From the NCBI GenBank assembly GCA_964430355.1, contig CAYSFW010000089.1, forward strand, positions 147,750 to 211,749: DNA of 64,000 nucleotides, in the 5' to 3' direction. Below the pieces are notes generated by a model. The model saw nothing but the letters and a program-made list of their open reading frames with translations, ran no database searches and was not told the DNA's origin. The DNA comes from an uncultured Thiotrichales bacterium. GTDB lineage: Bacteria; Pseudomonadota; Gammaproteobacteria; UWMA-0217. Both the position numbers and the translations under genes were made by a program. Shown piece by piece: positions 22,907 through 48,185 of this stretch (positions are counted from its first letter, which is position 1; each line of letters begins with the position of its first letter).

Positions 22907-22980
22907 TTGCATTGATTCTGTCGGAACGTATCCTTTGCCGCGTTGATCGCAATTTGAGATTCCAACCCGAGGAACTAGAG

Positions 22981-31005: not shown

Positions 31006-31006
31006 G

Positions 31007-31750: not shown

Positions 31751-34700
31751 TGATGACCTCAAGCCCGTCCGCGACCCTTACACTCGGCAGGCGGCTCGGC
31801 ATCCGCAGTATCGTGTATGTCGCTGGCGAGGCCATTCCCTACTTCTGGCCGATGCGGACCTTCATCCACCACAACCCGCTGCACGGGCTTGAGCATCTGC
31901 CGTTCCACGCTGCCGTGGCGGAGGGCGAACGCTTGTTCCATGGCCAGGGCTACCTCAACCGAACGGCGTACCGGCGCTACCTGAAGGAAGGCCGGCTCTC
32001 GCGGGCGGACCTTGAGGTCCAGGTCGAGCGCTACATCGCGTCACGTCCCCCCCTTTCCGGCATCGACGCGCACGCCTTGCTAATGGAGAGGTTGATTGGG
32101 TCTGCGCCATCCCAGGCAGGGAATCTTGCTCTTGCGGACGCAGCGGACGTGCGCGCCGCGCTCAACCGCGCGCGCTTGCCGACCCGACACGTCGACGTGG
32201 CCACCCAAGTACTGCCGCTCGTATCCGGAAAACGTCCCCTCTACGAGGCGGTCGACCTGTTGTTCGGCACCGAGATCGGCGCGACGCTCGACGAGTTGGT
32301 GGTAAAGGGCTGTCTGGACTTCTTCGACGAAGGCCAGTCAGCTTGGCGCATGCCTGGCCGGGAACAAGGCTTGTTTCGCGCATGGAGTGCGGTGGCGCGC
32401 CACAACCTGCGCCTGTTCATCCGCGGGCTGCACATCCAGCGCATTCTGCAGGCCGCCGACTCGCCCGAAGGGGTCATCAGCCACGTGCTGAGCGAGTTGG
32501 GCATACCGGAGGAGCGTTGGGTGGACTACTTCGCCGCGGAGCTCACGCGACTGCACGGCTGGGCAGGCTTCATCCGGTGGCGATCGGCAGCGAAGACCTA
32601 CTTGTGGAGCCGTCATCACCCCGCGGACCTGACGGATTACCTCGCAATCCGGCTCGTGCTCGGGTTGGTCCTGCTTCGCGAGCATGCGGCGCGTGCGCAA
32701 ACACCGGGCAACCTACCCGCCCTGCGCCAGTTCGTTGAAGCGCATCCAGAAGAGGCTTACCTACGGCTGGAGTTTCACACGGGGCGGGTGATCCCCGCGC
32801 TGGCGCATGCGGTGGAGGACGCAATCGCCACGCCGCGGAGCGGGCGCCTGCGGCGACTCATGCCGGAGTACCTCGCCAGCAAGCGCGCGCAAGAGGCAGG
32901 GCAGCTTGCCGAGGGTCTGATAGCTCTGGCTGGACCCTCAGGGCAGCGACAAGCTCTTGCAGGCCTGGATGTCGAGTCGCTTGGTATGTTGCTGAGCCTG
33001 CTCGAAGATTTCTCACGCGTGGAAGGCGCCGTTTGGCTAGAGGCCCACGAAGCGCACTTCCGCCGCGAGCTCTTAGGTCGCCTCAGCCTCGCGCTGCCTC
33101 CGCCACGGGCCAAGCGTCCCTTTGCACAGGCGATGTTCTGCATCGACGTGCGCTCCGAGAGGATTCGGCGCCACCTGGAGCGCGTGGGCGATTACCAAAC
33201 GTTTGGCATCGCCGGCTTCTTTGGTATTCCGATGAGCTTCATCGGCCTGGACAAGGGCAGTGAGACCCAACTCTGCCCGGTGGTCGTGACCCCAAAAAAC
33301 GTGGTGTTGGAGTTGGATATCGCCCGCGCCAAAGATCACGACGCATTCATCTCGGTGCTTGAGCACGTGTTTCATGACCTGAAGGCTTCGGTGCTGTCGC
33401 CCTACATCACTGTGGAGGCCATCGGTCTGTTGTTCGGGCTGGACATGTTCGGCAAGAGCTTTGCGCCTGCCGTGTATAACCGCTGGCGCAGCCGCCTGCA
33501 TCCGCAGAAGACCGACAGCCGGCTCCTGCTCGACAAACTCTCCCGGGAGCAGGCCGATTCCATCATCCGCGCGCTGCAGCGGGCCATGATTGTCAAGGCG
33601 GTTACGCGCGAGCTTGGCATCCGACGTGAGGCGATCACCGACGAGATGATTCGCGAGCTGCGCGAGACGGCGCTCTGCAACCGCGAAGGGCCGAGCCGCC
33701 TGGCAACAGCGTTCAAGCTCGAAGCCGAGGTCGAGGCTCGGTTCATCCAGCGCTTGCGCGAGGTCTACCGCGTGGACCGTGGCTATGCACAGATCCAAAT
33801 GGAGCGCCTCGGGCGCATCGGTTTCAGCCTCGAGGAGCAGATCAACTACGTCGTACTCGTTCTGCGCTCGATCGGCCTGACCCGAGGGTTCTCCCGCTTC
33901 GTTCTCGCAGTGGGCCACGGCAGCCGCTCGGAGAACAACCCCTATGAGTCGGCACTGGACTGTGGCGCCTGTGGGGGCAACCACGGACTGATCAACGCAC
34001 GGGTACTTAGCCAGATCGCCAACAAGCCCGCGGTCCGCGAGGGACTGCGCCGACACGGCATCGACGTGCCGGACGACACCTGGTTTGTGCCCGCCCTGCA
34101 CAACACCACGACCGACCAGATTGTGCTGCATGATCTCGACCTGCTGCCCCCGAGTCACCTGGTGTACCTGGACCGGTTATCCAGCGGGCTTGAGGCAGCC
34201 TCCCGCCTCAGTGCCTGCGAGCGATTGCCCGCGCTAGCTTCGGTCACGCACCCCCTTGCCACTGAGAGGGCTTACCGAGTTGCTTACACCAACGCCTTCG
34301 ATTGGTCGCAGGTCCGGCCGGAGTGGGGGCTCTCGCGCAATGCCGCCTTCATCATTGCCAGACGTCAGGTGACCGAGCAGGCGGACCTGCAAGGCCGGGT
34401 GTTCCTGCATTCTTATGACTATCGTTGTGACCCCAAGGGCCGGTTACTTGAAAACATCCTTGCCGGTCCCCTCGTCGTAGGGCAGTGGATCAATCTGGAA
34501 CATTATTTTTCGGTCGTAGACAACGAGCGTTACGGCAGCGGCTCCAAGGTCTATCACAACGTTGCGGGTCGCTTCGGCGTCATGACCGGAAACCTGTCCG
34601 ACCTGCGCACCGGGCTGCCGGCCCAGACCGTACTCAAGGACGGACGGCCCTTTCACGAGCCCCTGCGGTTGCTCACGGTCATTGAAGCGCCATTCGAGCA

Positions 34701-34872
34701 GGCGCGAAAGGCCGTCGAGGGTGTGGCAAAGGTCAAAGGCCTCGTGCGTAACGGGTGGGTGCACATGGTCATCGTGGATCCGGAAACGGGCGAGGTGCGC
34801 CGCTACACCGAGGGATGCTGGCAGCGCGAGACGCTCGGCGAGTTCACCCCGTCACAGGAGTCTTTGCCATGA
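31747..34872 (+). CDS. dabA: DAB/DAC soluble subunit (DUF2309, beta-CA-like)
   Basis: FIHHNPLHG, FCIDVRSE, GHGS, ALDCGACGG Zn-ligand motifs, WSQVRPEWGL, HNVAG...GN. Confidence 0.92.
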   Translation: MMMTSSPSATLTLGRRLGIRSIVYVAGEAIPYFWPMRTFIHHNPLHGLEHLPFHAAVAEGERLFHGQGYLNRTAYRRYLKEGRLSRADLEVQVERYIASRPPLSGIDAHALLMERLIGSAPSQAGNLALADAADVRAALNRARLPTRHVDVATQVLPLVSGKRPLYEAVDLLFGTEIGATLDELVVKGCLDFFDEGQSAWRMPGREQGLFRAWSAVARHNLRLFIRGLHIQRILQAADSPEGVISHVLSELGIPEERWVDYFAAELTRLHGWAGFIRWRSAAKTYLWSRHHPADLTDYLAIRLVLGLVLLREHAARAQTPGNLPALRQFVEAHPEEAYLRLEFHTGRVIPALAHAVEDAIATPRSGRLRRLMPEYLASKRAQEAGQLAEGLIALAGPSGQRQALAGLDVESLGMLLSLLEDFSRVEGAVWLEAHEAHFRRELLGRLSLALPPPRAKRPFAQAMFCIDVRSERIRRHLERVGDYQTFGIAGFFGIPMSFIGLDKGSETQLCPVVVTPKNVVLELDIARAKDHDAFISVLEHVFHDLKASVLSPYITVEAIGLLFGLDMFGKSFAPAVYNRWRSRLHPQKTDSRLLLDKLSREQADSIIRALQRAMIVKAVTRELGIRREAITDEMIRELRETALCNREGPSRLATAFKLEAEVEARFIQRLREVYRVDRGYAQIQMERLGRIGFSLEEQINYVVLVLRSIGLTRGFSRFVLAVGHGSRSENNPYESALDCGACGGNHGLINARVLSQIANKPAVREGLRRHGIDVPDDTWFVPALHNTTTDQIVLHDLDLLPPSHLVYLDRLSSGLEAASRLSACERLPALASVTHPLATERAYRVAYTNAFDWSQVRPEWGLSRNAAFIIARRQVTEQADLQGRVFLHSYDYRCDPKGRLLENILAGPLVVGQWINLEHYFSVVDNERYGSGSKVYHNVAGRFGVMTGNLSDLRTGLPAQTVLKDGRPFHEPLRLLTVIEAPFEQARKAVEGVAKVKGLVRNGWVHMVIVDPETGEVRRYTEGCWQRETLGEFTPSQESLP

Positions 34873-35195
34873 AAAACCTCAACTTCAGTCCGTTGAAAAA
34901 ACTCGAGATCATTATCGAGGGCGCTCACCAGGAATACGCCACTGACCTGCTCGACCGCGCGGGGGTGAGTGGCTACACCATCGTCAACAACCTTTCTGGC
35001 AAAGGGCGTCATGGCTTCCACGAAGGCCACCTGATGTTCAACGAAGACGCCGTGCTCATCATGATTATCGTCGCTGTGCCGGAGGAGTTGGTGAAGCCCT
35101 TGCTTGAGGGCTATGCGCCGTTTTTCAGCCAGCACTCGGGGGTCGTCTTCATCTCGGACATTCAGGTCACCCGATTGCAAAAGTTCACCGGGTGA
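34869..35195 (+). CDS. P-II superfamily (SbtB-like) regulator of the DAC
   Basis: KKLEIIIEG, GVSGYTI...SGKGRHG; ATGA overlap with dabA. Confidence 0.8.
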   Translation: MKNLNFSPLKKLEIIIEGAHQEYATDLLDRAGVSGYTIVNNLSGKGRHGFHEGHLMFNEDAVLIMIIVAVPEELVKPLLEGYAPFFSQHSGVVFISDIQVTRLQKFTG

Positions 35196-35216: not shown

Positions 35217-36191
35217 TCAGGTTGGTGCTGTCGATTGGGAGACGCCAAACCCCTCGTTCGTGCCACGCATCTGTGGCTGGACTTGCTCCCAGATGCGGCG
35301 GCCGTCCTGGAGCAGGAAGTCGCGAAACATACGAGCGGTTGGGGACAGCTTCTTGCCCTTGAGATGCACCGCGTACCACTTGCGGATCAAGGGGAAATGT
35401 TCCACATCAAGCACGGCGAGCAGCCCGGACTCCATTTCCAGCCGTAGGTTGTGGCGCGACAGCACGGAAATGCCCAAGCCCGCCATCACTGCCTGCTTGA
35501 TGGCCTCGCTGCTGCCGAGCTCCATGTACACGTTAGCGGAGAGTCCATGCTCGGCGAACAGGCGCGTGCGCGCTGCTCGGGTGCCCGAGCCGGGTTCGCG
35601 GGCGAGGAAGCGCTCCTCGGCGATGCGGGCCAGTGGAATGTTCCGTTGTCCTACCAGGGGGTGGTCTGGGTGGGCCACCACGACGATCGGATTGTCGAGA
35701 AAGTATTCCGCTTCCAGGTCCAGGTTTTCGGGCAGGGTCCCCATGATGACGATGTCATCAAGATTGTTTTCCAACCGCTCCACAACGCGCGCCTGGTTCG
35801 TGATGGTCAGCCTGGGTTCGACTTCCGGGTAATCCCGCAGAAAAACCCCCAGCAGGTGGGGCATGAAGTACTTGGCTGTGGTGATCGCGGAGAGCTTGAT
35901 TGGTCCCTTGACGCCTTTCTCCAGACCGATCATGTCCTCGTTGAGCACCTGAAGGCGGTCGAGCACGTCCCGGCTCGCTTCGAATAACTCCCGCCCCGCT
36001 TCCGTGAGAAACAGGCGCTTCCCTACCTGCTCTACCAAAGGGATGCCGACACTTTCCTCCAACCGCTTGATTTGTATGGAAACAGCGGGCTGCGTCAGAA
36101 ACAGCTCTTCGGCCACGCGGGTATAGCTGAGGTGCGTACCCAGGCTGTGGAACAGGCGGAGCTGGTGCAAGGTCACGTTTCGCAGCCGCAT
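35217..36191 (-). CDS. cbbR: LysR-family CBB regulator
   Basis: TLHQLRLF...AEELFLTQPAVSIQ HTH, TTAKYFMPHLLG, REPGSGTR, SSEAIKQAV. Confidence 0.85.
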   Translation of the reverse strand: MRLRNVTLHQLRLFHSLGTHLSYTRVAEELFLTQPAVSIQIKRLEESVGIPLVEQVGKRLFLTEAGRELFEASRDVLDRLQVLNEDMIGLEKGVKGPIKLSAITTAKYFMPHLLGVFLRDYPEVEPRLTITNQARVVERLENNLDDIVIMGTLPENLDLEAEYFLDNPIVVVAHPDHPLVGQRNIPLARIAEERFLAREPGSGTRAARTRLFAEHGLSANVYMELGSSEAIKQAVMAGLGISVLSRHNLRLEMESGLLAVLDVEHFPLIRKWYAVHLKGKKLSPTARMFRDFLLQDGRRIWEQVQPQMRGTNEGFGVSQSTAPT

Positions 36192-36257: not shown

Positions 36258-36370
36258 CTTCCCAGCTACAGTGCGTGACATGCAGCGATTCCACCGGCCC
36301 ATGCGACCGCCACGAATCGCGCCCGGCGAGCACGCCGGGATTCCGTCAACGCACCACCGAGAGGAAAGAC

Positions 36371-38704
36371 ATGCCAGAGCAGACTGCGACAGCCGACGCC
36401 ATGGCGGGCTTGAGCGGAAGGGATTTTGCCCGTGCGCGCCGGGCCATGTTGAGTCAGACCGGGAAGAAGGGCAATGGGCTACTGACGCCGCAGGGCGTGG
36501 CCTCGATTCAGCGCGAACGTCTTGTCAACGCGTCAAGCGCGCCCGCGACGCTGCCGGCTGCGCCAACTACGGGAGCCATAACGGATTCCCCCGCGCTGTC
36601 GTTCGAGGTCGCCAACGAGGTGGCTGCAGATGTTGCCTGTGCGTTGATCGAAAGCTCACCAGACGTCGCCGCCGCCGTGGAAGCGGACAGCGGCATCAGC
36701 ATGCGCGACTACTGCCGCCAGCGCCGGCAGGCGCTGGCCACGAAGGGCAAAACGGCCTTGCCCCCAAAGCCGGGGTCGGCCATCGGCGGGAGTGGCTCTT
36801 CGGGCCATGCGGTGGCCAGGCAGCGACGCATCGAGCAAAGTCTCAAGGGGCGTGGTAGTGCGCCGCCGGCGCGTCCCAGCGGCCGCATCCGTCCGCAAGT
36901 CGAGCCACCCCCCAAGGTTGAAACGGGGACCACGCTCGCTGGCCAGACGGTCACTGGCACGCAGGTCGAGCGGACGGTCAAGGTCACCGGCAATGAGCCG
37001 GGCTCATGCCGTGTGATCACCGGCACGGAGTACATCGGACAGGAGCAGTTCGACAAGTTCTGCATATCGCGGCCCAATCCCGCGCCAGCCAAGGTCGGCG
37101 CGAGCGCTACCAGTCGTGGCCAGGTGGTCAGCGGCACCGAGGTGGCCCGCACACCGAAGGTCACGGGTGGTGAGGCCGGCACATGCAAGCCGGTGACCGG
37201 CACCGAGTACTTGGGTAATGAGACGTTCGTCGAGTTCTGCGCTGGAAAGAACCTGATTGCCAGACCCGAGAAGGTGGTCATGGGCACCAGTGCCCGGCGG
37301 GGGTTGACTATCACCGGTAGCGACGAGGCTCGTCCCGTCGCGGTCACAGGCGTCGAGGCCGGGGCGCGGCGGACGATCACTGGATCGCAGTACAACGATG
37401 CGGGCGTTTCACGCCTGACCATCAATGGTCCGCGCAAGGTGGCGTTGACCCACACGTTGGCGGGCCGTCCCGTTTCGGGTACCGAGGTCGGGCGTTCTTT
37501 CAAGGTCACCGGCGACGAGGCAGGGGCGTGCCGGACGATCTCGGGTACGGAATACCTCTCGAACGAGCAGTTCCAGAGCATCTGTCACACCCGTCCCCCC
37601 GCAGGAGCGGCCAAGGTGGGCGAAGCGGCGAGTCTCACTGGTCAGCGGATCACTGGCAATCTGGTCGAGCGCACCGCAAAGGTCACGGGCAACGAGCCGC
37701 GCGCGGAAGGGCGCATCACCGGCTCTCAGTATGAGCGCTGCGCCACACCCGGCACCGCGCCGGCCAAGGTGCGTGAGATGCACACGTTGGCTGGCCGCCC
37801 GGTTACGGGGGGACTGCTGGTCGGGCGTGTGTCCCCAAAGTTGAGCGGTGACGAGCGGGGTGGGTGCCAGCCCGTCACCGGAACCGAGTACGCAGGGGCG
37901 GAACAGGCCGCCGCTTGCCCGACGTTGGAGCCGGTAACGCCTGCTGCCAAGGTTGATGTCACCCACACCCTGCGCGGTCAGGTGGTTTCCGGGACACCCC
38001 TGGGCCGTTCCACCCTTGTGACCGGTGATGAGCCAGGCAGTCACCTGGCCATCAGTGGGACACCCTATGCGGCCAGCGAGCAAGTCGCCGGTGCGTGTGG
38101 GTGCGGTTGCGGTTGCAAGGGTCCCGAGTCTGCCGAGGTCGATACGCTGCCCCAGGCCCATCCCCGCTTCCAGCCACCTGGCCGTACCCGTGCCATGGCC
38201 ATGAGCATGATGCCGGCCGAGCCCCGCCCGCAGTCGTTCAGCGTTACGGGCCCCGCGCGTGAGGCTCGCAGCCGCATCACCGGCACTGGCTATGGCGGCT
38301 CCGGGCGCATCACCGGCCCCGTGAACATGGCCACGGGCCTGGTCTCGGGTACGCCGGAATTTCGCTATCGCGACGAGGGCAGCTTCATCGCCCGCAATTG
38401 CCGGGACGCCATGCCCAGTCAGGCGGCGGTTGGGGATTCGCGCATCACCGGCGAGGGTCGCGATGCCGGCCAGCGCATCACCGGCGATGATTGGGGGCGC
38501 AGCGAGCGTGTGACCGGTACCGAAGGCCGCTGGGCACAAACCCGAAATCCGACCTTGCGTGGCGTCAGTTGTGGCATGTCCGCGGGCGCTTGGGCCAACA
38601 AAGGCCGCGAACGCCCCGAGGTGCCCTTGGCGAAGGTCACGGGTAGTAGCGGCAACGCGGGCAAGGGGGCGGTGGTCACGGTCTCTGGCGGGGCGCGGGG
38701 CTAA
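36371..38704 (+). CDS. csoS2: Alpha-carboxysome scaffold protein CsoS2
   Basis: Three N-repeats (RDFARARR, RDYCRQRR, HAVARQRR), seven M-repeats with (V/I)(T/S)G triplets and GTEY, C-terminus VTVSGGARG; GAGGA RBS before ATG 36371. Confidence 0.93.
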   Translation: MPEQTATADAMAGLSGRDFARARRAMLSQTGKKGNGLLTPQGVASIQRERLVNASSAPATLPAAPTTGAITDSPALSFEVANEVAADVACALIESSPDVAAAVEADSGISMRDYCRQRRQALATKGKTALPPKPGSAIGGSGSSGHAVARQRRIEQSLKGRGSAPPARPSGRIRPQVEPPPKVETGTTLAGQTVTGTQVERTVKVTGNEPGSCRVITGTEYIGQEQFDKFCISRPNPAPAKVGASATSRGQVVSGTEVARTPKVTGGEAGTCKPVTGTEYLGNETFVEFCAGKNLIARPEKVVMGTSARRGLTITGSDEARPVAVTGVEAGARRTITGSQYNDAGVSRLTINGPRKVALTHTLAGRPVSGTEVGRSFKVTGDEAGACRTISGTEYLSNEQFQSICHTRPPAGAAKVGEAASLTGQRITGNLVERTAKVTGNEPRAEGRITGSQYERCATPGTAPAKVREMHTLAGRPVTGGLLVGRVSPKLSGDERGGCQPVTGTEYAGAEQAAACPTLEPVTPAAKVDVTHTLRGQVVSGTPLGRSTLVTGDEPGSHLAISGTPYAASEQVAGACGCGCGCKGPESAEVDTLPQAHPRFQPPGRTRAMAMSMMPAEPRPQSFSVTGPAREARSRITGTGYGGSGRITGPVNMATGLVSGTPEFRYRDEGSFIARNCRDAMPSQAAVGDSRITGEGRDAGQRITGDDWGRSERVTGTEGRWAQTRNPTLRGVSCGMSAGAWANKGRERPEVPLAKVTGSSGNAGKGAVVTVSGGARG
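37834..37851 (+). other. -1 programmed ribosomal frameshift site (CsoS2A/CsoS2B)
   Basis: In-frame C CCA AAG in M-repeat 6 (TCC CCA AAG); the -1 frame reads CCC AAA GTT GAG CGG TGA. Same heptamer as the known Halothiobacillus csoS2 frameshift. Confidence 0.75.
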
Positions 38705-38717
38705 GGAGGGCAATCGC

Positions 38718-40247
38718 ATGAATACCCGCAACGCCTACGCTCTGCGCGTGAAGGCCCAGCGCAAGGCCGCACCAGCGCGCGCTCCCTACGGCCTCGGTAC
38801 GCCGACCGCGACGCTTCAGACGCGGCAGGCCACAGGTTTGGAAGCGGCGGACAAGTCGACCTTGCGCCACGCATTGACGGACCGGTCCATGAATGCGCGG
38901 CTGGCCCACTGCGAGGAGTCCGTCAAGGGGCGCTTCGACACCATCGCGCCGACGCTTAAGTGTATTTCAGCCCTTCAGCATCTCGAGGACTTCCCGGAGC
39001 GCGCGCAAGCCATCGCCCGTGAGCGGCTGGGCTACGAGCTGCCCGTCAATATCCTGGAGGATGCCTGGGTTGCGGGCCTGGATCTGAAATCGCTGTACGC
39101 GCACTGCGTCTTCGAGGCGCTCAAAGGCGCGTCGGCGCAATTCGTGCATGACATTCAAAACCAATTGGAGCGCGTGCAGGATGCCCGCAACTTCTTCCTG
39201 GAGTGCGGCTACCACGCGGTGGACATCAGTCCATGTGCCGACGGTCGCCTCAAGGGGCTCTCCCGTTACATCCTGCGCCTGCCACTGACTTCGCTGACAC
39301 GGCGCAAATCCTATGCCGGTGCCCTGTTCGACGTCGAAACCGACATGCGTCACTGGGGTGTCGTCGAACTGCGTCGCTTTCGCGAGGGTGTGCCCACCAC
39401 GGCGGATGCCGGAACGCGCTATCTCAAGATCGCGGTCTACCACACCAGCTCGTCTGACCCGACGCATCAAGGGTGCGCCGCGCATGGGAGCAACGAGCAC
39501 AAGGCGATCGACGCAGCCCTCGAGCGGCTCGTCCAATTCCGCCAGGCCATCGAGAACAGCTTTTGCTGCGGCGCGAGCACCGACTTGCTGCTCCTCGGCG
39601 TGGACACCGACACGGACGCGATCAAGGTTCACATACCTGACAGCTGCGGTGACCTCTCTCCGCATCGTGTCCTCGACAACGCAGATCTCTACCGGCAAAC
39701 CGCTGGCATGTCCGCCGACGCTGCGCGAGCGGCGGTTTATGAGGCCATCCGGGCTGCCAGTCGTCAGGGTGGGTGGGGCGCGGGAGCGGGCGAGCCGCAC
39801 GATGGCATGCGTCGGTTCATCGCCAACCTGTTGATCAACAACTTCTCGCAGATCGAGTACGTGAACGAGCTCCACGGCGGACGCTACGCCGACGTTGGCC
39901 ACGCCGAGCGCTTCATCTGTGTGGGGGATGGGTTGGAAGAGGTGCAGATGCGCAACGTCGTCTACTACGCGCATTTGGCCACCCTGGAGGAAGGGGTCGC
40001 GGATGTGGACGTTGGCGTCAAGATCTTCAAGGAGCTCAACGTTAAGCACGGGCTACCCGTGCCTGTCGTGGTGCATTTCCGCTATGACAGTCGTGTGCCG
40101 GGCTCCCGCCAGCGGGCCGCCGACAAGGCCCGTCGTGTAGGAGAAGCCATCCAGAGCCGTTACGCCGATCTGAGCAGCAAGGGCTTCTTGGTATGCCGTC
40201 TCCTCGTACAGGACCAACCCACGGGCAGTTCGCTGGAGGAGGTATAA
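38718..40247 (+). CDS. csoSCA: Carboxysomal carbonic anhydrase CsoSCA
   Basis: SPCADGRL, YHTSSSDPTHQGCAAH Zn ligands, GVDTDTDAI, GHAERFI. Confidence 0.95.
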   Translation: MNTRNAYALRVKAQRKAAPARAPYGLGTPTATLQTRQATGLEAADKSTLRHALTDRSMNARLAHCEESVKGRFDTIAPTLKCISALQHLEDFPERAQAIARERLGYELPVNILEDAWVAGLDLKSLYAHCVFEALKGASAQFVHDIQNQLERVQDARNFFLECGYHAVDISPCADGRLKGLSRYILRLPLTSLTRRKSYAGALFDVETDMRHWGVVELRRFREGVPTTADAGTRYLKIAVYHTSSSDPTHQGCAAHGSNEHKAIDAALERLVQFRQAIENSFCCGASTDLLLLGVDTDTDAIKVHIPDSCGDLSPHRVLDNADLYRQTAGMSADAARAAVYEAIRAASRQGGWGAGAGEPHDGMRRFIANLLINNFSQIEYVNELHGGRYADVGHAERFICVGDGLEEVQMRNVVYYAHLATLEEGVADVDVGVKIFKELNVKHGLPVPVVVHFRYDSRVPGSRQRAADKARRVGEAIQSRYADLSSKGFLVCRLLVQDQPTGSSLEEV

Positions 40248-40252
40248 GGCGC

Positions 40253-40516
40253 ATGAAGATCATGCAAGTGGAGAAAACCCTGGTGTCGACCAACCGAATC
40301 GCTGAACTCGGCCACCGCCCACTATTAGTGGTGCGTGAAAAGGCTGGCGGCGCGCGCCAGGTCGCCGTAGATGCCATCGGCTGCATTCCGGGCGATTGGG
40401 TCATCTGCGTGGGCTCGTCCGCGGCGCGCGAGGCAGCGGGCAGCAAGGAGTACCCGTCGGACCTCACGATCGTTGGCATCATCGATCACTGGTCCGCAGA
40501 AGAGGCCAAATCCTGA
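40253..40516 (+). CDS. csoS4A: Carboxysome vertex pentamer
   Basis: MKIMQVEKTLVSTNR...VAVDAIGCIPGDWVICVGSSAAR...DLTIVGIID. Confidence 0.93.
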   Translation: MKIMQVEKTLVSTNRIAELGHRPLLVVREKAGGARQVAVDAIGCIPGDWVICVGSSAAREAAGSKEYPSDLTIVGIIDHWSAEEAKS

Positions 40517-40767
40517 TGGAAATCATGCAGGTACGTTCCGACTTGGTAGCCACGCGGCGCACCTCTGGCCTCAAGAACCACTCCCTTCGGGTGGTCGTGG
40601 ATGCCAAGGGCAACCTCTCCGTGGCGTGCGATCCGGTGGGTGTGCCGCCGGGTAAGTGGGTGTTTACCGTGAGTGGCTCGGCTGCACGGTACGCGGTTGG
40701 CGATCCTAAGGTCCTCACCGACCTGACCATTGCCGGAATCATTGATAACTGGGACCCGGAGACCTGA
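40516..40767 (+). CDS. csoS4B: Carboxysome vertex pentamer
   Basis: MEIMQV...VACDPVGVPPGKWVFTVSGSAAR...DLTIAGIIDNW. Confidence 0.93.
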   Translation: MEIMQVRSDLVATRRTSGLKNHSLRVVVDAKGNLSVACDPVGVPPGKWVFTVSGSAARYAVGDPKVLTDLTIAGIIDNWDPET

Positions 40768-40828
40768 GCGCCGGGGCGATCGACGACTCGACCTTCAACC
40801 GTTTCTCAAAACCTGTAGGAGAACTGAA

Positions 40829-41122
40829 ATGGCAGCAGTAACTGGTATTGCGCTTGGCATGATCGAAACCCGCGGCCTCGTCCCCGCTATCGAGGCGGCG
40901 GATGCCATGACCAAAGCGGCGGAGGTGCGCCTCGTGGGCCGTGAATTTGTTGGCGGCGGCTACGTCACGGTGATGGTGCGCGGTGAGACCGGTGCGGTGA
41001 ACGCAGCGGTGCGCGCCGGGGCCGATGCCTGCGAGCGCGTGGGTGACGGCTTGGTGGCCGCGCATATCATCGCCCGTGTGCACTCGGAAGTCGAAGGCGT
41101 GCTGCCCCAGGCTACATCCTGA
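40829..41122 (+). CDS. csoS1: Carboxysome shell hexamer CsoS1 (copy 1)
   Basis: GIALGMIETRG...AADAMTKAA...FVGGGY...HIIAR. Confidence 0.95.
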   Translation: MAAVTGIALGMIETRGLVPAIEAADAMTKAAEVRLVGREFVGGGYVTVMVRGETGAVNAAVRAGADACERVGDGLVAAHIIARVHSEVEGVLPQATS

Positions 41123-41169
41123 TTCGCCCAAAGATACACACTGAAATCTTGAGTTGATGGAGAACCGAA

Positions 41170-41466
41170 ATGGCTGAGATTACTGGTATTGCCCTTGGCA
41201 TGATTGAAACTCGTGGCCTTGTTCCCGCCATCGAGGCGGCAGATGCCATGACCAAAGCGGCGGAAGTCCGACTGATTGGTCGGCAGTTCGTCGGTGGGGG
41301 CTATGTCACCGTGCTGGTTCGTGGTGAGACGGGGGCGGTCAATGCCGCTGTACGTGCCGGTGCAGACGCCTGCGAACGGGTTGGCGATGGGCTTGTCGCC
41401 GCGCACATCATTGCGCGCGTTCACTCCGAGGTGGAGGGCATCCTGCCCAAGGCGCCTAGCGCGTGA
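41170..41466 (+). CDS. csoS1: Carboxysome shell hexamer CsoS1 (copy 2)
   Basis: Same BMC-H motifs; GRQFVGGGY variant. Confidence 0.95.
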   Translation: MAEITGIALGMIETRGLVPAIEAADAMTKAAEVRLIGRQFVGGGYVTVLVRGETGAVNAAVRAGADACERVGDGLVAAHIIARVHSEVEGILPKAPSA

Positions 41467-41529
41467 CGTAACTGCCGTGAGGTGGGCGTAACGCCCCCTC
41501 ACGAACAGCATTCTTCCTGGAGAACTGAA

Positions 41530-41868
41530 ATGTCGGCTATGACTGGAATCGCGTTGGGGATGATCGAAACCCGCGGGTTGGTGCCCGCCATCGAGGCGGC
41601 GGATGCCATGACCAAGGCCGCGGAAGTCCGCTTGATCGGGCGCGAGTTCGTCGGTGGGGGCTACGTCACGGTGATGGTGCGTGGCGAGACGGGTGCCGTG
41701 AATGCTGCAGTGCGTGCCGGTGCCGACGCCTGCGAACGGGTCGGCGATGGGCTTGTTGCCGCGCACATCATCGCGCGCGTCCACGCCGAGGTCGAAGGCG
41801 TGCTGCCGAGCTCGCCGAGCGCCGCAGGCGGCGGACGTGATGGCGAGGTCACCACGCGGCGCAGTTGA
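41530..41868 (+). CDS. csoS1: Carboxysome shell hexamer with C-terminal extension (CsoS1B-like)
   Basis: BMC-H core plus tail SSPSAAGGGRDGEVTTRRS. All three csoS1 genes share the leader GGAGAAC(T/C)GAAATG. Confidence 0.93.
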   Translation: MSAMTGIALGMIETRGLVPAIEAADAMTKAAEVRLIGREFVGGGYVTVMVRGETGAVNAAVRAGADACERVGDGLVAAHIIARVHAEVEGVLPSSPSAAGGGRDGEVTTRRS

Positions 41869-41878
41869 GGGTTGGGTG

Positions 41879-42355
41879 ATGCGTGCAAACCCTCGACTGG
41901 CTGGTTACCTCACGCAGGCGCTGGATCATGAGCTGAGCGTGGTTCAGCAGTACCTCACGCAGTCCTGCCTATGTCGGCTGTGGCGGGAGGACGCACTGGC
42001 AGATTATTTCCGCAGGGAGGCCGACGAGGAACAAAGCCACGCAGGCAAGTTGGTCTGCCATTTATTGAGTTTGGGCCTTGCCCCCAACGGTACCCGGCTC
42101 AAACCCGTGCGGCCCGGCCGCGAACTGCGGGAGATGCTGTTGCTCGACCGCCAGCTGGAGCTGGATGCGGTGTTGCTCTACCAGGACGCCCTGCACTACG
42201 CCGAGCGATGCCGGGACGCGGCGGCCTCAGCCCTGTTTGCCGAGCTGCTGGCCGACGAGGAAGCGCACTTGGCGGAACTCGATCGCATGCTCGCTGGACT
42301 TGCGGATCGGGACTATGACCCAGAGAGTTTCTTGAGAGAGGTGTGCCATGTCTGA
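41879..42355 (+). CDS. Bacterioferritin-like protein associated with alpha-carboxysome loci
   Basis: Ferroxidase-like residues ALDHEL..QQY, EEQSH, LEL...Y, DEEAH. Confidence 0.8.
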   Translation: MRANPRLAGYLTQALDHELSVVQQYLTQSCLCRLWREDALADYFRREADEEQSHAGKLVCHLLSLGLAPNGTRLKPVRPGRELREMLLLDRQLELDAVLLYQDALHYAERCRDAAASALFAELLADEEAHLAELDRMLAGLADRDYDPESFLREVCHV

Positions 42356-42608
42356 ACTACCGCCGCCGGGATGGCAGGTCCAAACCAAGCCGCCCATGAT
42401 GATGCGGCGCTTTGAATTTCCAGACTACACGGCTACTCGCGCCTTCCTGGACGGGCTCGCAAAGCTTTCGGAGAAATGCGGCTACTACCCCGACCTCAAT
42501 TTCGCCAAGACCCATGTCAGCGTCACGCTCGCCGCCCGCGATGTGGCGCTGGGTGCAGATGAGTACGGCTTTGCTAGCCGTGTGAACGCCCTGGTCGAGA
42601 GTCAGTGA
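42348..42608 (+). CDS. Pterin-4a-carbinolamine dehydratase-like Rubisco assembly factor (acRAF/Raf2-like)
   Basis: W...RRFEF.DY..TR.FLD.LA.LSE..GYYPDLNF pattern; usual position after the bfr-like gene. Confidence 0.8.
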   Translation: MSELPPPGWQVQTKPPMMMRRFEFPDYTATRAFLDGLAKLSEKCGYYPDLNFAKTHVSVTLAARDVALGADEYGFASRVNALVESQ

Positions 42609-42617
42609 GGGACGACG

Positions 42618-43274
42618 ATGGGTGGCCATGTGCTTGCAGTGGCCAGCCTGAAGGGCGGGTGTGGAAAATCGACACTGGCGTGGAACCTCGCGGCGGGCCT
42701 GACCGAGCGCGAAGGGCATGGGCGAGTGGGATTGCTTGATGCGGACCCGCAAGGTGCGCTTACCCACTGGGCAGCGTGGGCGCGGGGCAGCGGATCGGGT
42801 GCTGCGAGGGCGCCGGAGGTCATGCCAGCCCACCTCGAGCCCGCACAGACCTTGGCCCAGGTACGCGAGCGGTTCGCCTGGCTGCTGGTGGATTGTCCGC
42901 CTTCCGTTGACATGTCCATCACCCGCCGGGTCCTTGCACTTGCCGACACCGTGGTTGTGCCCGTACTGCCCTCTCCGCTCGATCTTTGGGCCAGCGCGCA
43001 AACGATGCACGCAGTGCTCGATGCGCAAGTGAACAATCCCACGCTCGCGGCGTGGCTGCTCTTGAATCAGGTAGAGCCAAGCAGCGCACTCTCCCGCGCC
43101 ATGCGCAGGGCGCTCGCCGAGCAAGCGTTTCCGACGCTCACGAGCGTCGTTCGCCGTCGAGCGGCGTTCCGCAGCGCGGCCCTGGAAGGCGTGAGTGTCT
43201 ATCAACTCGGTGCGCGTGGTCGGCAAGCGGCGCGCGACATTGACCAAGTCATCGAGGAGCTACTGCGACCATGA
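42618..43274 (+). CDS. mcdA: ParA/MinD-like carboxysome positioning ATPase
   Basis: Deviant Walker A KGGCGKST, DADPQG, VDCPP, PSPLDLWA; followed by an McdB-like gene. Confidence 0.78.
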   Translation: MGGHVLAVASLKGGCGKSTLAWNLAAGLTEREGHGRVGLLDADPQGALTHWAAWARGSGSGAARAPEVMPAHLEPAQTLAQVRERFAWLLVDCPPSVDMSITRRVLALADTVVVPVLPSPLDLWASAQTMHAVLDAQVNNPTLAAWLLLNQVEPSSALSRAMRRALAEQAFPTLTSVVRRRAAFRSAALEGVSVYQLGARGRQAARDIDQVIEELLRP

Positions 43275-43543
43275 GCAAACTGGACGACAAACTTGCCGCC
43301 AGCGTCAAGCTGGCGGTGGATCCGGCGGCTACAGCCAAGCCGGCCCCAAAGAAGTCAGCGGTAAGGAAATCTGCCAACAGCGCGTCCGTGAAAACGCCGA
43401 GCCCGGCGCCCGCGGTCACGCCGTCGCCCGCGCGACAGCCCGAGCCCTGCGGCGCGGCTGCCGCGGGCGATAAGGTCGAGGAGGTGATTCAGGGGGCTGC
43501 TCGCGGCAGGTCGCTGCATCCACGCCGCGTCTGGCCGGATTAG
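43271..43543 (+). CDS. mcdB: Carboxysome positioning adaptor
   Basis: MSKLDDKLAASVK N-terminus, disordered Pro/Ala/Lys-rich middle, C-terminal LHPRRVWPD. Confidence 0.8.
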   Translation: MSKLDDKLAASVKLAVDPAATAKPAPKKSAVRKSANSASVKTPSPAPAVTPSPARQPEPCGAAAAGDKVEEVIQGAARGRSLHPRRVWPD

Positions 43544-43552
43544 GAGGTGCGT

Positions 43553-43800
43553 ATGGCGGAGGCCGATCGCGACGGCGGCGACGCGGCTCAGTCCGCCTAG
43601 GCGTCGTGTCTGCTCGGTTAGAATCTGTGGACCGTGCTACTCGTACTGCTGGCGAGCGGGCTCATGTTCGGCTTGAGCGTGCCTGAAGTGCAGCCGCTCA
43701 TCATAGGCTTCATGCTGGCCGGGCTCGTGCTCAACTGCTGGCTGTCGAGGTGTGCCGCCATGAGCGATCGTGAAACGCCTGAAGGCAAGGCGAACTTATC
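43553..43800 (+). pseudogene. Possible disrupted small membrane-protein gene
   Basis: Strong AGGAGGT RBS and ATG 43553; two in-frame TAGs (43598, 43619), then two hydrophobic helices in the same frame. End coordinate approximate. Confidence 0.3.
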
Positions 43801-43825
43801 CGGCCCGCCAGCCGCCTGCGCTCGT

Positions 43826-44878
43826 TCACACCTGCTCGAGCGCCCTCGATTGCCAGTTCAGCACGGCAGTGCGGCGGTACATCTTATCAGCCAGTACCGG
43901 AAACTCTCGGCTGATGATGTCGGCGGTGAATTCCGCCATGAAGCGCGCCTTCACCACGGCGCGGGCGCGGTCGACGCCAAGCTCCTCGTAGGGCGCTGAG
44001 GCCAGCATTAGGAAGCCGTCATCCGGAATGCGTCCCGTGCGCATGTTGTTGAGGATGATGCTGGCCGCCTTGCGCAGGGGGTCTTCCAGGTTGGGGCTAT
44101 AGGGCCCGATGATCAGGGCCAGATTGGGCATGTGCAGGAAGTCGAATCCGCGGCCGACACAGATCATCCATTCCCTGTGTTCGATGTCCAGGGCTCGGTC
44201 CTGGCTGCGTACCTGGGCGATGCGTTTGAGGTTTCCGGCCAGGAGCGGCAGCAGGTCGTCGCGCATCTGTTGGGACATGTCCGGAAACAGTGCAGCAAGC
44301 CTCGGAGCCAGGGTGTCGGCATCGGCGGGCGTAAGCTCGGCGAGATTCAGCTCGCCGTCCTCCGCGCCATGCAGGATCAGCGCATCTTCGTCGGTCTCGA
44401 AACCGCAAACGATGGGATAAACCCCACCGTGCTCGCGTCCGAATACGTCCTCCACCTGTGCCTTGACGGTGCGCGTGTGGGCGATGGCGGCGTGGGTGTC
44501 GTAGTTGAACCCCGCGCACCCGCGTCGCGGGTCACCCTTGGAGAAGTGATAGGTGATCAGCGCAAGCGTTTGTCGCCCCCCGCGTACCGTGCGCAGGATG
44601 TGGTGCGCGAGCGTCTCGTTTAAATGCGGCCAGCCGAGGTGAAACATGCCACCCAGGTTGCGGAACGGCTGAATGATCCCAGGTGGCGTCTGCGTCGCTA
44701 CGGGGATGTTGATGCGGCCATCCATGCACTTGAGGGCAACGATATCGGTGGGATGTTGCGCCAAGTATCGCACCCGCGCCATCCAGGTCTCCGGACTGGT
44801 GTAGGTCTCCGTGTAGCGTGCAGCAACGTCGAATAGCCAGTTGATGCGTTCAGCGATCGGGGCACCGTAGATGTCCAC
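43826..44878 (-). CDS. Stand-alone CsoSCA-like beta-carbonic anhydrase
   Basis: KCMDGR, YHFSKGDPRRGCAG and GFETDEDALILH parallel the CsoSCA motifs; GTG start 6 nt after GAGGAG; no signal peptide. Confidence 0.72.
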   Translation of the reverse strand: MDIYGAPIAERINWLFDVAARYTETYTSPETWMARVRYLAQHPTDIVALKCMDGRINIPVATQTPPGIIQPFRNLGGMFHLGWPHLNETLAHHILRTVRGGRQTLALITYHFSKGDPRRGCAGFNYDTHAAIAHTRTVKAQVEDVFGREHGGVYPIVCGFETDEDALILHGAEDGELNLAELTPADADTLAPRLAALFPDMSQQMRDDLLPLLAGNLKRIAQVRSQDRALDIEHREWMICVGRGFDFLHMPNLALIIGPYSPNLEDPLRKAASIILNNMRTGRIPDDGFLMLASAPYEELGVDRARAVVKARFMAEFTADIISREFPVLADKMYRRTAVLNWQSRALEQV

Positions 44879-45123
44879 TCATTGCTCCTCGACAAGTTCT
44901 CGATGCGGTCTGGATTTCGTGACCCTTGGGATCATGAGGTTGCGTGCCGGTGTTTCGACACCTGGCGCGTCTTGTGAAATATGGCCTAGAATCGATTCAT
45001 CTTTTCTTACCAGCCCCCGGCGAAGGGCCGAGCCGTACTGGTCCAAATTGTCGTTGGAGGACCCCTGTGGAGCAACCGGGAAAGCGCCTTCGACCGGCAT
45101 GCTACAGTGTCTCCTATTGAACT

Positions 45124-45576: not shown

Positions 45577-47046
45577 TCAGAACAGGCTGCGGTTGATCAG
45601 AAAATGGGCGCCGATGCTGGAGACATAGCCGAGCGCCACCGCCCAGCTCCAGCGCAGGTGGCTGAAAAACGTGTACTGGCCGCGTGCCTGGCCCATCAAG
45701 GCCACGCCGGCAGCCGATCCGATCGACAGCAGCGACCCGCCCACCCCCGCCGTCAACGTCACCAACAGCCACTGACCCACCGACATGTCGGGATTCATGG
45801 TCAGCACCGCAAACATGACCGGGATGTTGTCCACGATGGCCGAGAGCAGGCCAATGGCGACGTTGGCGGTGGTCGGGCCCCATTGCGCGTACATGACGTC
45901 TGATGCCAGCGCGAGGTATCCCATGAATCCCAGGCCGCCGACGCACAGGATGACGCCGTAGAAAAAGAACAGCGTGTCCCATTCCGCGCGCGCCACCCGC
46001 TCGAAAATGTCGAAGGGCACCACGTCGCCGATTTCGGCGCCCCCCTCGCGATCTGCCGCTTCGCCGTTGTAGCGGCCGTGCGTCTTGCGTAGATAGAACG
46101 CGTAGACCTTAAGGAAGCCCATGCCGGTGAGCATGCCGATGACGGGCGGCAAGTGTAAAAAGTTGTGGAAGGCAACCGCGGTGGCAATGGTCAGCAGAAA
46201 CAGCACAAGGATTGTGAATGCGCCGCGTTTCATGCGTACGTGATCGTTGACGACACTGGGCGATGCATCAGGTACGGCGAAGTGCATCAGCGCCGCGGGC
46301 ACCACGAAATTGACGAGCGAAGGCACGAACAGGGCGAAAAAGGTCCAGAAGTCCACGACACCCTTCTGCCAGACCATGAGTGTGGTGATGTCGCCAAACG
46401 GACTGAAAGCCCCCCCGGCATTCGCTGCAACGACGATGTTGATGCAGGCCAGAGAAATGAAGCGCGCGTTGCCGCCGCCGACGGACAGGACCACCGCGCA
46501 CATCAGCAAGGCAGTAGTGAGGTTGTCCGCCATCGGCGAGATGAAGAACGCGAGGGTGCCGGTGATCCAGAATAACGCACGCAAGCCGTACCCCCGCGAA
46601 ACCAGCCACGATCGAAGTGCCTCAAAAACCAGGCGCTCGTCCAGCGCGTTGATATAGGTCATGGCCACCAGCAAGAACAGCATCAGCTCGGCGTATTCGA
46701 GTAGATTGTGCCGCACGGCGGCCTCCGCCTCGTGCGGTAGGCCATGCTGGCCGTAGTACAGCGCGATCATCGCCCAGATGATCCCCGCGGCAAGTACCAC
46801 GGGCTTTGACTTGCGCAGGTGAATGAATTCCTCGGCCATCACCAGAAGGTAGGCCAGCACGAAGATCGCAATGCCGGTGAAGCCAACCCAGTGCTGGGTC
46901 AGATCAAGCCGCGCACTAGCGCCGCTCGCCCACACCAACTCGGGCAGAAGCAAGAAAGCCGCTGCTGCCACGGCCGAAGCGATGCCACCCGGCGAACGTC
47001 GGGCTCGAGTGCAACTTGCGGGCGGGTTGGGTGGCTGACAGATCAT
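45577..47046 (-). CDS. nhaD: NhaD-type Na+/H+ antiporter
   Basis: EEFIHLRKSKP, FLLVAMTYIN, ADNLTT, ANAGGAFSPFGDITT, SAIVDNIP, GSLLSIGSAAGV. Start uncertain (47046 chosen). Confidence 0.9.
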   Translation of the reverse strand: MICQPPNPPASCTRARRSPGGIASAVAAAAFLLLPELVWASGASARLDLTQHWVGFTGIAIFVLAYLLVMAEEFIHLRKSKPVVLAAGIIWAMIALYYGQHGLPHEAEAAVRHNLLEYAELMLFLLVAMTYINALDERLVFEALRSWLVSRGYGLRALFWITGTLAFFISPMADNLTTALLMCAVVLSVGGGNARFISLACINIVVAANAGGAFSPFGDITTLMVWQKGVVDFWTFFALFVPSLVNFVVPAALMHFAVPDASPSVVNDHVRMKRGAFTILVLFLLTIATAVAFHNFLHLPPVIGMLTGMGFLKVYAFYLRKTHGRYNGEAADREGGAEIGDVVPFDIFERVARAEWDTLFFFYGVILCVGGLGFMGYLALASDVMYAQWGPTTANVAIGLLSAIVDNIPVMFAVLTMNPDMSVGQWLLVTLTAGVGGSLLSIGSAAGVALMGQARGQYTFFSHLRWSWAVALGYVSSIGAHFLINRSLF

Positions 47047-47181
47047 CAGGGCATACCTTCGGTGGCGTGGGTTTGGTTCCAGTCGGCCGCCGCGACCCGG
47101 CAACCGGAAAAGCCTGTGATGATAGGTCAGCCGATGGACAGGCAACAGCCCGATTCGGCGGTACGGCGAGCCATCGCGAAC

Positions 47182-47212
47182 TTGACAAAGGGTATAGAAA
47201 ATCATCTATAAG
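47182..47212. promoter_or_regulatory. TTGACA plus TATAG-N8-CTATA operator between nhaD and the LysR gene
   Basis: TTGACA at 47182-87; ATAG-AAAATCAT-CTAT at 47194-47209. Confidence 0.6.
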
Positions 47213-47249
47213 AGGGTTCGGTCCGATCAATCCATGGCCCCATCAGCAC

Positions 47250-48185
47250 GTGCTCGCCCGACATATCACATTGCGTCAACTCCAGGTCTTCGAGGCTATC
47301 GTCCGCCACGGCAGTTTCACCCGGGCAGCTGAAGAGCTCTACCTCACGCAGCCTACGGTTTCCATGCAGATCAAGAAGCTCTCCGATGAGGTGGGCCTGC
47401 AGCTGTTCGAACAAGTGGGGCGCACGGTGGAGCTGACGGACGCCGGACGCGAGTTGTACAACGCGAGTCGCAATATTTTCTCCGCTTTTTCCAACCTGGA
47501 GATGAAGATTGCCGACATGAAGGGGCTACGCGCGGGCAGGTTGCGACTGACGGCACTGACCACGGCGCAGTACTTCGCACCGCGAATACTGGCCGAGTTC
47601 AGCCGGCGCTACCCCGGGATCGATGTCAACCTGAGTGTGGTCAACCGTGAGCAGGTCATAGAACGTTTGGCGAACAACGAGGACGACCTCTACATTCTGG
47701 GCCAGACGTTGCCGCAGGAGCTTGCGATCGAAGCCGCGCCGTTCGCGCCGAATTGTCTCGTCGTGCTTGCGCGGCACGATCATCCGTTGGTCGGGCAGCG
47801 CAACATTCCGGTCGAGCGGCTGGCCCGGGAGCCGTTCATCATGCGCGAGTCCGGCTCGGGCATCCGGGATGCAGTCCACCGCCTGTTTCAGGCTCACAAT
47901 GTCGAGCCGCAGGTGCGCATGGCACTGGGCAGCAACGAGGCGATCAAGCACGCTATTGTGGCTGGCTTGGGCGTGTCGGTGCTGTCGGCGACTGCCCTCA
48001 TCCTGGAGGGCGTCGAGGGTCCGTTGCGGATCCTGGATGTCGAGGGCTTCCCCATCCGCCGTCAGTGGTACCTGGCCTACCCTCGGAGCAAGGCGTTGAC
48101 GCTGGTCGCGCAGACCTTCTGGAATTTCTGCATGGAGGAAGGCGAGGATCTGACGGGCAGTCTGCTCGGGCACCTGGCCCTGTGA
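47250..48185 (+). CDS. Second CbbR/CmpR/CcmR-like LysR regulator
   Basis: TLRQLQVFEA..RHGSFTRAAEELYLTQPTVSMQ, TTAQYFAPRIL, NNEDDLYIL, RESGSG, SNEAIKHAI. GTG start 47250 inferred. Confidence 0.85.
   Translation: MLARHITLRQLQVFEAIVRHGSFTRAAEELYLTQPTVSMQIKKLSDEVGLQLFEQVGRTVELTDAGRELYNASRNIFSAFSNLEMKIADMKGLRAGRLRLTALTTAQYFAPRILAEFSRRYPGIDVNLSVVNREQVIERLANNEDDLYILGQTLPQELAIEAAPFAPNCLVVLARHDHPLVGQRNIPVERLAREPFIMRESGSGIRDAVHRLFQAHNVEPQVRMALGSNEAIKHAIVAGLGVSVLSATALILEGVEGPLRILDVEGFPIRRQWYLAYPRSKALTLVAQTFWNFCMEEGEDLTGSLLGHLAL

Follow-up and report, generated by a model that had tools for sequence, protein, structure and literature searches.

The closest described relatives of the gene considered here are carboxysomal csoSCA, whose product CsoSCA (also CsoS3; structures 2FGY, 8THM and 9G4T) is a carbonic anhydrase (CA), and a set of csoSCA homologs found outside carboxysome loci, which Sutter, Kerfeld & Scott 2022 (PMC9164163) named 'csoSCA2'. 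In the compact variant of the latter, the N-terminal region comprises ~40 amino acids with two short predicted helices, loops are shortened, one domain is active and one defunct, all catalytic residues are present and the phylogenetic position is separate. According to the same authors this variant is widespread in autotrophs and heterotrophs (Accumulibacter and Sulfuricella are among the holders named), is held unable to assemble into carboxysomes and is encoded by genes 'yet to be studied'. Pulsford et al. 2024 (PMC11086599) described the same group as a 'non-cso' CsoSCA cluster, with genes related to NAD or to [Fe-Ni] hydrogenases as neighbours. We analysed a stretch of 64,000 nucleotides (the window) from the genome of an uncultured Thiotrichales bacterium (GCA_964430355.1, contig CAYSFW010000089.1), in which an open reading frame (ORF) at 43826-44878 on the minus strand, opposite to the csoSCA of a carboxysome (cso) operon, had been annotated initially as a second CsoSCA-fold CA. 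Strand and extent of this ORF were confirmed, and its product is a member of the compact CsoSCA2 or 'non-cso' CsoSCA family, not a new kind of protein; gene and product are called csoSCA2 and CsoSCA2 below.

Models of the CO2-concentrating mechanism (CCM) require that no free CA acts in the cytoplasm. Cytosolic CA has been stated to be incompatible with a CCM (PMC7714395), and predicted cytosolic CAs in many carboxysome-bearing chemoautotrophs have been called alarming in a review (PMC10880623). The locus in the window sharpens this conflict more than any other example encountered: an apparently intact CA of the CsoSCA type, with neither an encapsulation tail nor a redox off-switch, is encoded within a few kb of cso and of a DAB-type pump for dissolved inorganic carbon (DIC), in a genome whose lack of any other alpha-CA or canonical beta-CA heightens the difficulty. 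The points of interest are thus the placement of csoSCA2 against a full DAB-carboxysome locus, the missing redox switch and the recurrent linkage of csoSCA2 to DabA and NuoL/M genes.

The CsoSCA2 protein of the window

The protein displays every sequence and structure feature that characterizes compact CsoSCA2, including a length of ~350 amino acids (350 in the window, 348–360 in its relatives). In a tree it falls outside the carboxysomal CsoSCA clade, the outgroup branch being ~10 versus 0.1–0.6 within the family. Its start codon matches the MDIH... N-termini of homologs in the alignment. The gene and its elements are as follows.

43826..44878, minus strand: csoSCA2 ORF, 350 amino acids, GTG start (ORF and translation, CsoSCA homology, AlphaFold2 model)
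44885..44890, minus strand: GAGGAG ribosome-binding site, 6 nt 5' of the csoSCA2 GTG (direct sequence reading)
44750..44878, minus strand: short N-terminal region, residues 1–43, with two helices (AlphaFold2 secondary structure)
44714..44728, minus strand: CMDGR, zinc ligand C51 and the D53/R55 dyad (invariant in both family alignments)
44516..44548, minus strand: HFSKGDPRRGC, zinc ligands H111 and C121 (opposite His242/Cys253 in the 2FGY alignment; invariant)
44378..44404, minus strand: GFETDEDAL strand/loop, residues 159–167 (CsoSCA counterpart GVDTDTDAI)
44171..44179, minus strand: H234-R-E236 (equivalent of HnCsoSCA His397/Glu399 in the 2FGY alignment)
43829..44179, minus strand: C-terminal 'defunct' beta-CA-like domain, ~residues 233–350 (sequence; Foldseek)

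At the sequence level CsoSCA2 is 18–26% identical to carboxysomal CsoSCA (26% over 189 residues, E 2e-7, in a BLASTP comparison with the CsoSCA of the window itself). The NCBIfam model TIGR02701 gave E 4.7e-11 and 42 bits, and its equivalog cut-off of 241 bits was not reached; the sole Pfam match listed was PF20686 (E 2.8e-4, slightly below the gathering score), and the same scan returned no match to PF20687, PF08936 or PF00484 (Pro_CA). The HMMER alignment to PDB entry 2FGY (E 7e-4) equates H111/C121 with His242/Cys253 and H234/E236 with His397/Glu399, the latter pair having been proposed for bicarbonate binding and proton shuttling in HnCsoSCA (2026 preprint, bioRxiv 10.64898/2026.04.02.716132). 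The three motifs singled out in the initial annotation (CMDGR, HFSKGDPRRGC and GFETDEDAL) are indeed present, and they align with the zinc ligands and the Asp/Arg dyad of CsoSCA.

A structure was predicted with AlphaFold2 from an alignment of 23 sequences (pLDDT 81.6, pTM 0.80). When compared with the PDB by Foldseek, the model matched the CsoSCA entries 9g4t, 8thm and 2fgy first (E ~1e-15, query TM-score 0.69–0.74, alignments spanning 372–393 columns of CsoSCA), the next-best beta-CA lying far behind (E 1e-6, query TM-score 0.41). At the level of this model, the CsoSCA-like fold claimed initially is confirmed. Besides the fold, CsoSCA2 has in common with carboxysomal CsoSCA the Cys-His-Cys zinc site, the Asp/Arg dyad, the His/Glu pair and the organization as a pseudo-dimer with a defunct C-terminal domain. 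With only one Cys, the C-terminal half of CsoSCA2 has no second zinc site.

Conservation was analysed among 94 representatives of the family, 29–55% identical to CsoSCA2 and taken from a library of 1.8 billion proteins. Mean column identity across these sequences is 29%, and the sole invariant columns are C51, D53, R55, H111, C121, T162, N216, H234 and G242; E236 and D163 are conserved in at least 90% of them. Since the invariant columns are those of the CA machinery, this machinery has been preserved exactly by selection. An intact predicted CA active site under strong purifying selection is thus established for CsoSCA2, and the pattern of conserved residues provides strong indirect evidence that the protein would be catalytically competent. 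The likeness of its motifs to those of CsoSCA is far beyond chance, because these residues are invariant at so low a mean column identity and because the predicted fold matches CsoSCA first.

The differences from carboxysomal CsoSCA concern the N-terminus and redox control. The ~170-residue disordered, Rubisco-binding tail and the hook-bearing N-terminal domain (PF20687) of the carboxysomal enzyme are replaced in CsoSCA2 by a short N-terminus, in which helices are predicted at residues 8–26 and 29–41. The first zinc Cys is residue 51 in CsoSCA2 versus Cys173 in Halothiobacillus CsoSCA, so that the protein does start near its catalytic domain without a carboxysome-targeting N-terminus, as had been noted initially; the accompanying statement that it has no signal peptide also held, the N-terminus showing neither a hydrophobic nor a twin-arginine signal. 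Judged by its sequence, CsoSCA2 has neither the tail nor the hook domain on which the known route of packing into carboxysomes depends, and that route is thus closed to it. It also lacks the vicinal Cys redox switch. In HnCsoSCA, Cys283/Cys284 are reported to make the enzyme inactive under reducing conditions (2026 preprint), and a regulatory pair of this type is found in about 80% of CsoSCA orthologs; the CsoSCA of the window has it in 'SFCCGAS', whereas the position is a gap in CsoSCA2 ('FGREH--GG' in the 2FGY alignment). Two other cysteines of CsoSCA2, C158 (44405-44407) and C240 (44159-44161), are conserved in at least 90% and in 100%, respectively, of its close relatives. They were considered as an alternative redox pair and rejected, their conservation being lost across the 94 representatives.

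The locus and its genome

The gene in the window abuts a typical cso operon within a DAB-carboxysome superlocus, whereas the papers on the family place such genes away from cso. That context served to describe the group when it was named and is no part of its definition by sequence. The surrounding features are listed below.

22885-24402: cbbL of form I Rubisco
29323..35195, plus strand: DAB-type DIC pump operon encoding NuoL-like DabB, a 247-aa membrane protein, DabA (1063 aa) and a P-II-like protein (PF00361, PF10070, PF00543)
35217..36191, minus strand: CbbR-like LysR gene between the dab and cso operons (NCBIfam best match CbbR, below cut-off)
36275..43543, plus strand: cso operon with csoS2, csoSCA, shell genes, a ferritin-like gene, a ParA/McdA-type ATPase gene and a small last ORF (Pfam/NCBIfam; tblastn of shell ORFs to related loci)
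38559..40247, plus strand: carboxysomal csoSCA, with the three CsoSCA Pfam domains and 707 bits on TIGR02701
45124-45558, plus strand: 144-aa ORF, head-to-head with csoSCA2
45577..47205, minus strand: NhaD Na+/H+ antiporter gene, 0.7 kb upstream of csoSCA2 (NF038006, 638 bits)
47016..48185, plus strand: second CbbR-like LysR gene (homology from ~residue 82 of the longest ORF)

The stop codon of csoSCA2 is 282 bp from the 3' end of the last ORF of the cso operon, the two being convergent (tail-to-tail). While csoSCA follows csoS2 inside the operon, csoSCA2 is on the opposite strand beyond the operon end; csoSCA ends at 40247, i.e. 3.58 kb off, in agreement with the spacing of ~3.6 kb given initially. 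The first 146 nt of the longest csoSCA ORF (38559-38704) still belong to csoS2, and the TIGR02701 match of this ORF begins at residue 104, so that the actual start is probably later. The second LysR ORF, for its part, overlaps the start of nhaD; given that homology begins near residue 82, its real start is probably at ~47260.

DabA (DAB/DAC/MpsAB, PF10070) shares with CsoSCA2 a beta-CA-derived zinc site employed in DIC metabolism, as well as the repeated genomic linkage described in the next section. The two differ in that DabA is a vectorial protein of ~1000 aa with a NuoL-type membrane subunit, whereas CsoSCA2 is small and soluble and has no membrane partner in the same operon.

The 144-aa ORF has no Pfam or NCBIfam match. 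Among the best 80 genomic loci of CsoSCA2 relatives, to which all locus counts refer (50 of the genomes were searched whole), its sole detected homolog is in L002 (50% identity), where it stands upstream of csoSCA2 but is co-directional rather than divergent.

The window genome assembly (3.48 Mb in 93 contigs, 99.95% complete) has MAGs (metagenome-assembled genomes) as its nearest relatives. A whole-genome search detected no alpha-CA (PF00194) and no canonical beta-CA (PF00484); the latter family is present in 11/14 genomes of the host order, the window genome being one of the three without it. A YrdA-type hexapeptide protein with an RGD...SNVQD...H signature is its sole CA candidate besides CsoSCA2, CsoSCA and DabA. 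Fragments of one form II Rubisco gene stand at the ends of two contigs (C72:23-601 and C7:8225-8563; loci L086 and L087, respectively), with a divergent LysR (CbbR-like) gene also in L086 and a CbbQ gene in L087. Because of this form II Rubisco, CO2 can probably be fixed by a cytosolic, carboxysome-free enzyme as well.

Among the 14 genomes of the order, csoSCA2 was found in the window genome only and carboxysomal CsoSCA in three. In one of the relatives (G007) the cso operon is directly followed by a LysR gene and a dab operon, without csoSCA2. No compositional signature of horizontal transfer was seen, since the GC content of csoSCA2 (0.60–0.64) does not depart from that of its flanks. The CsoSCA of the window is 73–77% identical to those of Thiobacillaceae-like MAGs versus 50% to that of G007; therefore, the CCM locus may come from a Thiobacillaceae-like donor.

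Distribution and gene neighbourhoods of the family

More than 2500 relatives of CsoSCA2 are present in a 90%-clustered collection, and 520 clusters were retrieved at E <= 1e-3 from a 50%-clustered library; several relatives are labelled 'carboxysome shell carbonic anhydrase (domain-containing protein)' at NCBI. CsoSCA2 is 65–87% identical to proteins of Thiobacillaceae, Accumulibacter, Thiodiazotropha, Desulfobulbus and Myxococcota MAGs, the values for Accumulibacter and Sulfuricella proteins being 65–70%. The 80 loci come from Thiobacillaceae, Rhodocyclaceae (including Accumulibacter), Sedimenticolaceae (Thiodiazotropha), Sulfuricellaceae, Magnetococcales, Alphaproteobacteria, Desulfobulbaceae, Deferrisomatales and Myxococcota, and the family also has hosts among Patescibacteria. 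The tree disagrees with taxonomy, which points to frequent transfer of csoSCA2.

As to co-occurrence, a CsoS2 gene is present in 9/50 genomes with CsoSCA2 and absent from the other 41, DabA is present in 23 and absent from 27, and a canonical beta-CA (PF00484) is found in 41/50. The last count implies that CsoSCA2 is not simply a housekeeping CA. Canonical beta-CAs (Can/CynT) do have their zinc chemistry, and probably a bicarbonate-supplying housekeeping role, in common with CsoSCA2; they differ from it in that CsoSCA2 does not match PF00484, is a single-chain pseudo-dimer of about twice the size and usually coexists with one of them. A general replacement of the housekeeping beta-CA by CsoSCA2 was considered and rejected: it fits the window genome and fails as a rule. 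The family is thus no part of the carboxysome, and it does not merely stand in for the housekeeping enzyme. It is probably used in vivo, to judge from the CsoSCA-like gene CAP2UW1_1967 of Accumulibacter, of unverified orthology to CsoSCA2, which is highly and dynamically expressed in a metatranscriptome (PMC4796919).

In the tree, the CsoSCA2 of the window forms a fully supported clade with those of L002, L003 and L004 (85–88% identity), in which csoSCA2 is convergent, as in the window, with McdA, a ferritin-like gene and csoSCA at distances of 0.7–6 kb. It is also linked to cso in L007 and L005 of the next clade. The cso-abutting arrangement is found in at least four related MAGs, and it contradicts the published generalization that non-cso genes are unassociated with cso operons. 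Orthologs of the second LysR gene of the window (46–47% identity) directly adjoin csoSCA2 in L005, L009 and L010.

In the sister clade and in several other lineages csoSCA2 stands beside a dab operon rather than cso. Its stop codon is then 0.1–0.25 kb from the end of a convergent operon encoding DabA (~1100 aa), one NuoL-like and two NuoM-like proteins:

L045:11275-19236: enlarged DAB-type operon convergent with csoSCA2
L020, L022, L025, L026, L030, L036, L040, L047, L048, L054, L063, L068, L070, L071, L073: same arrangement of DAB-type operon and csoSCA2

DabA is 4.5–5.6 kb downstream of csoSCA2 in at least 16/80 loci, and 3–4 further, truncated loci have a NuoM-like gene in the same position. 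The arrangement occurs in several beta- and gammaproteobacterial lineages, and its hosts include Sedimenticolaceae, Rhodocyclaceae, Hydrogenophilales and other MAGs. Of the 23 genomes with DabA, at least 9 have it within ~6 kb of csoSCA2, a proximity for which well below 1% would be expected with random placement in a genome of 3–5 Mb. The linkage has changed at least six times on the tree when only well-supported branches are trusted, and is therefore not one inherited accident. DabA is unnamed in the searched text of PMC9164163 and PMC11086599, and our literature search found no pairing of CsoSCA2 and DabA.

Two Sulfuricella-like loci (L062:11839-15529 and L079:11069-15474) have a complex-I/hydrogenase-like cluster (NuoB, fused NuoCD and an antiporter-like subunit) in place of DabA; these clusters probably explain the hydrogenase-type neighbours listed in PMC11086599. 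In three loci of one clade (L021, L024 and L028) a glutamine-dependent NAD synthase gene (CN_hydrolase and NAD_synthase domains) is ~100 bp downstream of csoSCA2 and co-directional with it. It may be the 'nicotinamide adenine dinucleotide' neighbour of the same paper.

Possible roles of CsoSCA2

The explanation that we favour, and to which we give slightly better than even chances, is that CsoSCA2 is an active, soluble, cytosolic zinc CA that operates while the CCM is off and is repressed or inhibited while the CCM runs. It is the simplest one because a carboxysome CCM is considered to tolerate no free CA in the cytosol (PMC7714395, PMC10880623). With the DAB pump and the carboxysome idle, a state presumably reached at high CO2 and low O2, in form II Rubisco mode, CsoSCA2 would equilibrate cytoplasmic CO2 and bicarbonate and so provide bicarbonate for biosynthetic carboxylases and CO2 for the cytosolic Rubisco. 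When the CCM runs, it would be repressed or inhibited, probably via the CbbR-like LysR regulators of the locus. Activity, cytosolic location and reciprocal regulation are what we infer from a protein that has the family membership, fold and catalytic residues described above, is devoid of targeting and redox elements and is linked to DIC genes conservedly. The initial annotation had suggested a two-mode CCM switch, in essence the same idea, which would be compatible with the form II Rubisco and the nearby CbbR-like LysR regulators. Learning how CsoSCA2 is prevented from short-circuiting the pump, or that no such prevention is needed, would clarify how chemoautotrophs switch between modes of carbon fixation, and the answer would be the first function for a widespread family (~520 clusters at 50% identity).

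Several points weigh against this explanation: (i) no measured activity of any CsoSCA2 member was encountered in the literature found, a search for 'CsoSCA2' having given no experimental paper; (ii) a scan of 43400-45300 for sigma-70 promoters and terminators detected no terminator and, as its sole promoter-like match, a weak site within a gene, and alignment of the csoSCA2 upstream regions of the window, L002, L003 and L004 revealed no conserved motif; (iii) the C283A/C284A variant of HnCsoSCA is inactive (2026 preprint), so that missing cysteines alone do not predict constitutive activity; (iv) a gamma-CA-like YrdA homolog is encoded in the window genome (contig C54, ~29.5–30.9 kb) and a canonical beta-CA accompanies CsoSCA2 in most of the 50 genomes; and (v) joint rather than alternate working of CsoSCA2 and the DAB-type pumps would account equally well for their tight pairing.

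Point (v) leads to an alternative that we regard as rather unlikely, though a serious contender, namely that CsoSCA2 and ion-translocating DIC machines (DabA with NuoL/M, or Ehr-like complexes) are functional partners that act simultaneously. In this role CsoSCA2 might feed or drain the pump locally, balance CO2, HCO3- and H+ in the cytosol, or contribute to pH homeostasis together with NhaD. Such a partnership is suggested by the convergent operon of DabA, one NuoL-like and two NuoM-like genes recurring within 0.1–0.25 kb of csoSCA2 in several lineages, by the Ehr-like NuoB/NuoCD/antiporter clusters at the same position in L062 and L079 and by nhaD being only 0.7 kb away in the window. The NAD-related or [Fe-Ni] hydrogenase neighbours of PMC11086599 point the same way, and 65–70% identity across phyla suggests constraints beyond catalysis. 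However, all DAB-linked loci examined are convergent and hence the genes are never co-transcribed; more than half of the CsoSCA2 genomes (27/50) have no DabA; and a free CA beside a vectorial, CO2-hydrating pump should give a futile cycle, in keeping with the incompatibility of cytosolic CA and CCM (PMC7714395). A more far-reaching form of the idea, which we consider distinctly unlikely, is that CsoSCA2 is a dedicated soluble module of ion-gradient-driven DIC machines, possibly docked to DabA and NuoL/M or to Ehr-like complexes. If this were true, a 'leaky' and a vectorial CA together would constitute a carboxysome-independent CO2-concentrating or pH-stat cycle, coexisting here with a classical carboxysome CCM and overturning the rule that a CCM excludes cytosolic CA.

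It is improbable, in our estimation, that CsoSCA2 is no CO2/bicarbonate enzyme at all and acts instead on a different small molecule (COS, CS2 or a comparable heterocumulene) or as a bicarbonate/CO2 sensor. Other enzymes with the beta-CA fold and the same set of ligands do hydrolyse COS or CS2, the hosts of the family are mostly sulfur-oxidising or sulfur-cycling bacteria, and the CA activity of the family is a predicted one. Yet the invariant residues are exactly those of the CA mechanism of CsoSCA, the His234/Glu236 pair included, csoSCA2 is linked to DIC genes (cso, dab, CbbR-like) and not to sulfur genes, and the family extends to Accumulibacter, Myxococcota and Patescibacteria.

We attach very little probability to CsoSCA2 being a second carboxysomal CA, encapsulated without the N-terminal Rubisco-binding peptide. 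The short distance to the end of the cso operon (282 bp), kept as adjacency in the nearest relatives, is what would suggest it; against this, the gene does not belong to the operon and is read from the other strand, the protein has no N-terminal tail or hook domain, CsoS2 is absent from 41/50 genomes, the sister-clade genes are beside dab and not cso, and CsoSCA2 proteins are considered unable to assemble into carboxysomes (PMC9164163). Such encapsulation by another route had also been envisaged initially and is unlikely given the distribution of the family.

The 'variant 1' CsoSCA2 of Nitrobacter and Nitrosomonas arose by duplication of csoSCA and loss of the N-terminus. For the window gene such an origin, as a recent local duplicate of the neighbouring csoSCA, is suggested by proximity and is refuted by 26% identity to the neighbouring CsoSCA versus 65–87% to the CsoSCA2 of other lineages and by the long outgroup branch, so we give it practically no credence; of the initial proposal of a second CsoSCA-fold CA, the homology to CsoSCA stands, and the gene belongs to the diverged CsoSCA2/non-cso family instead of being a local second copy.

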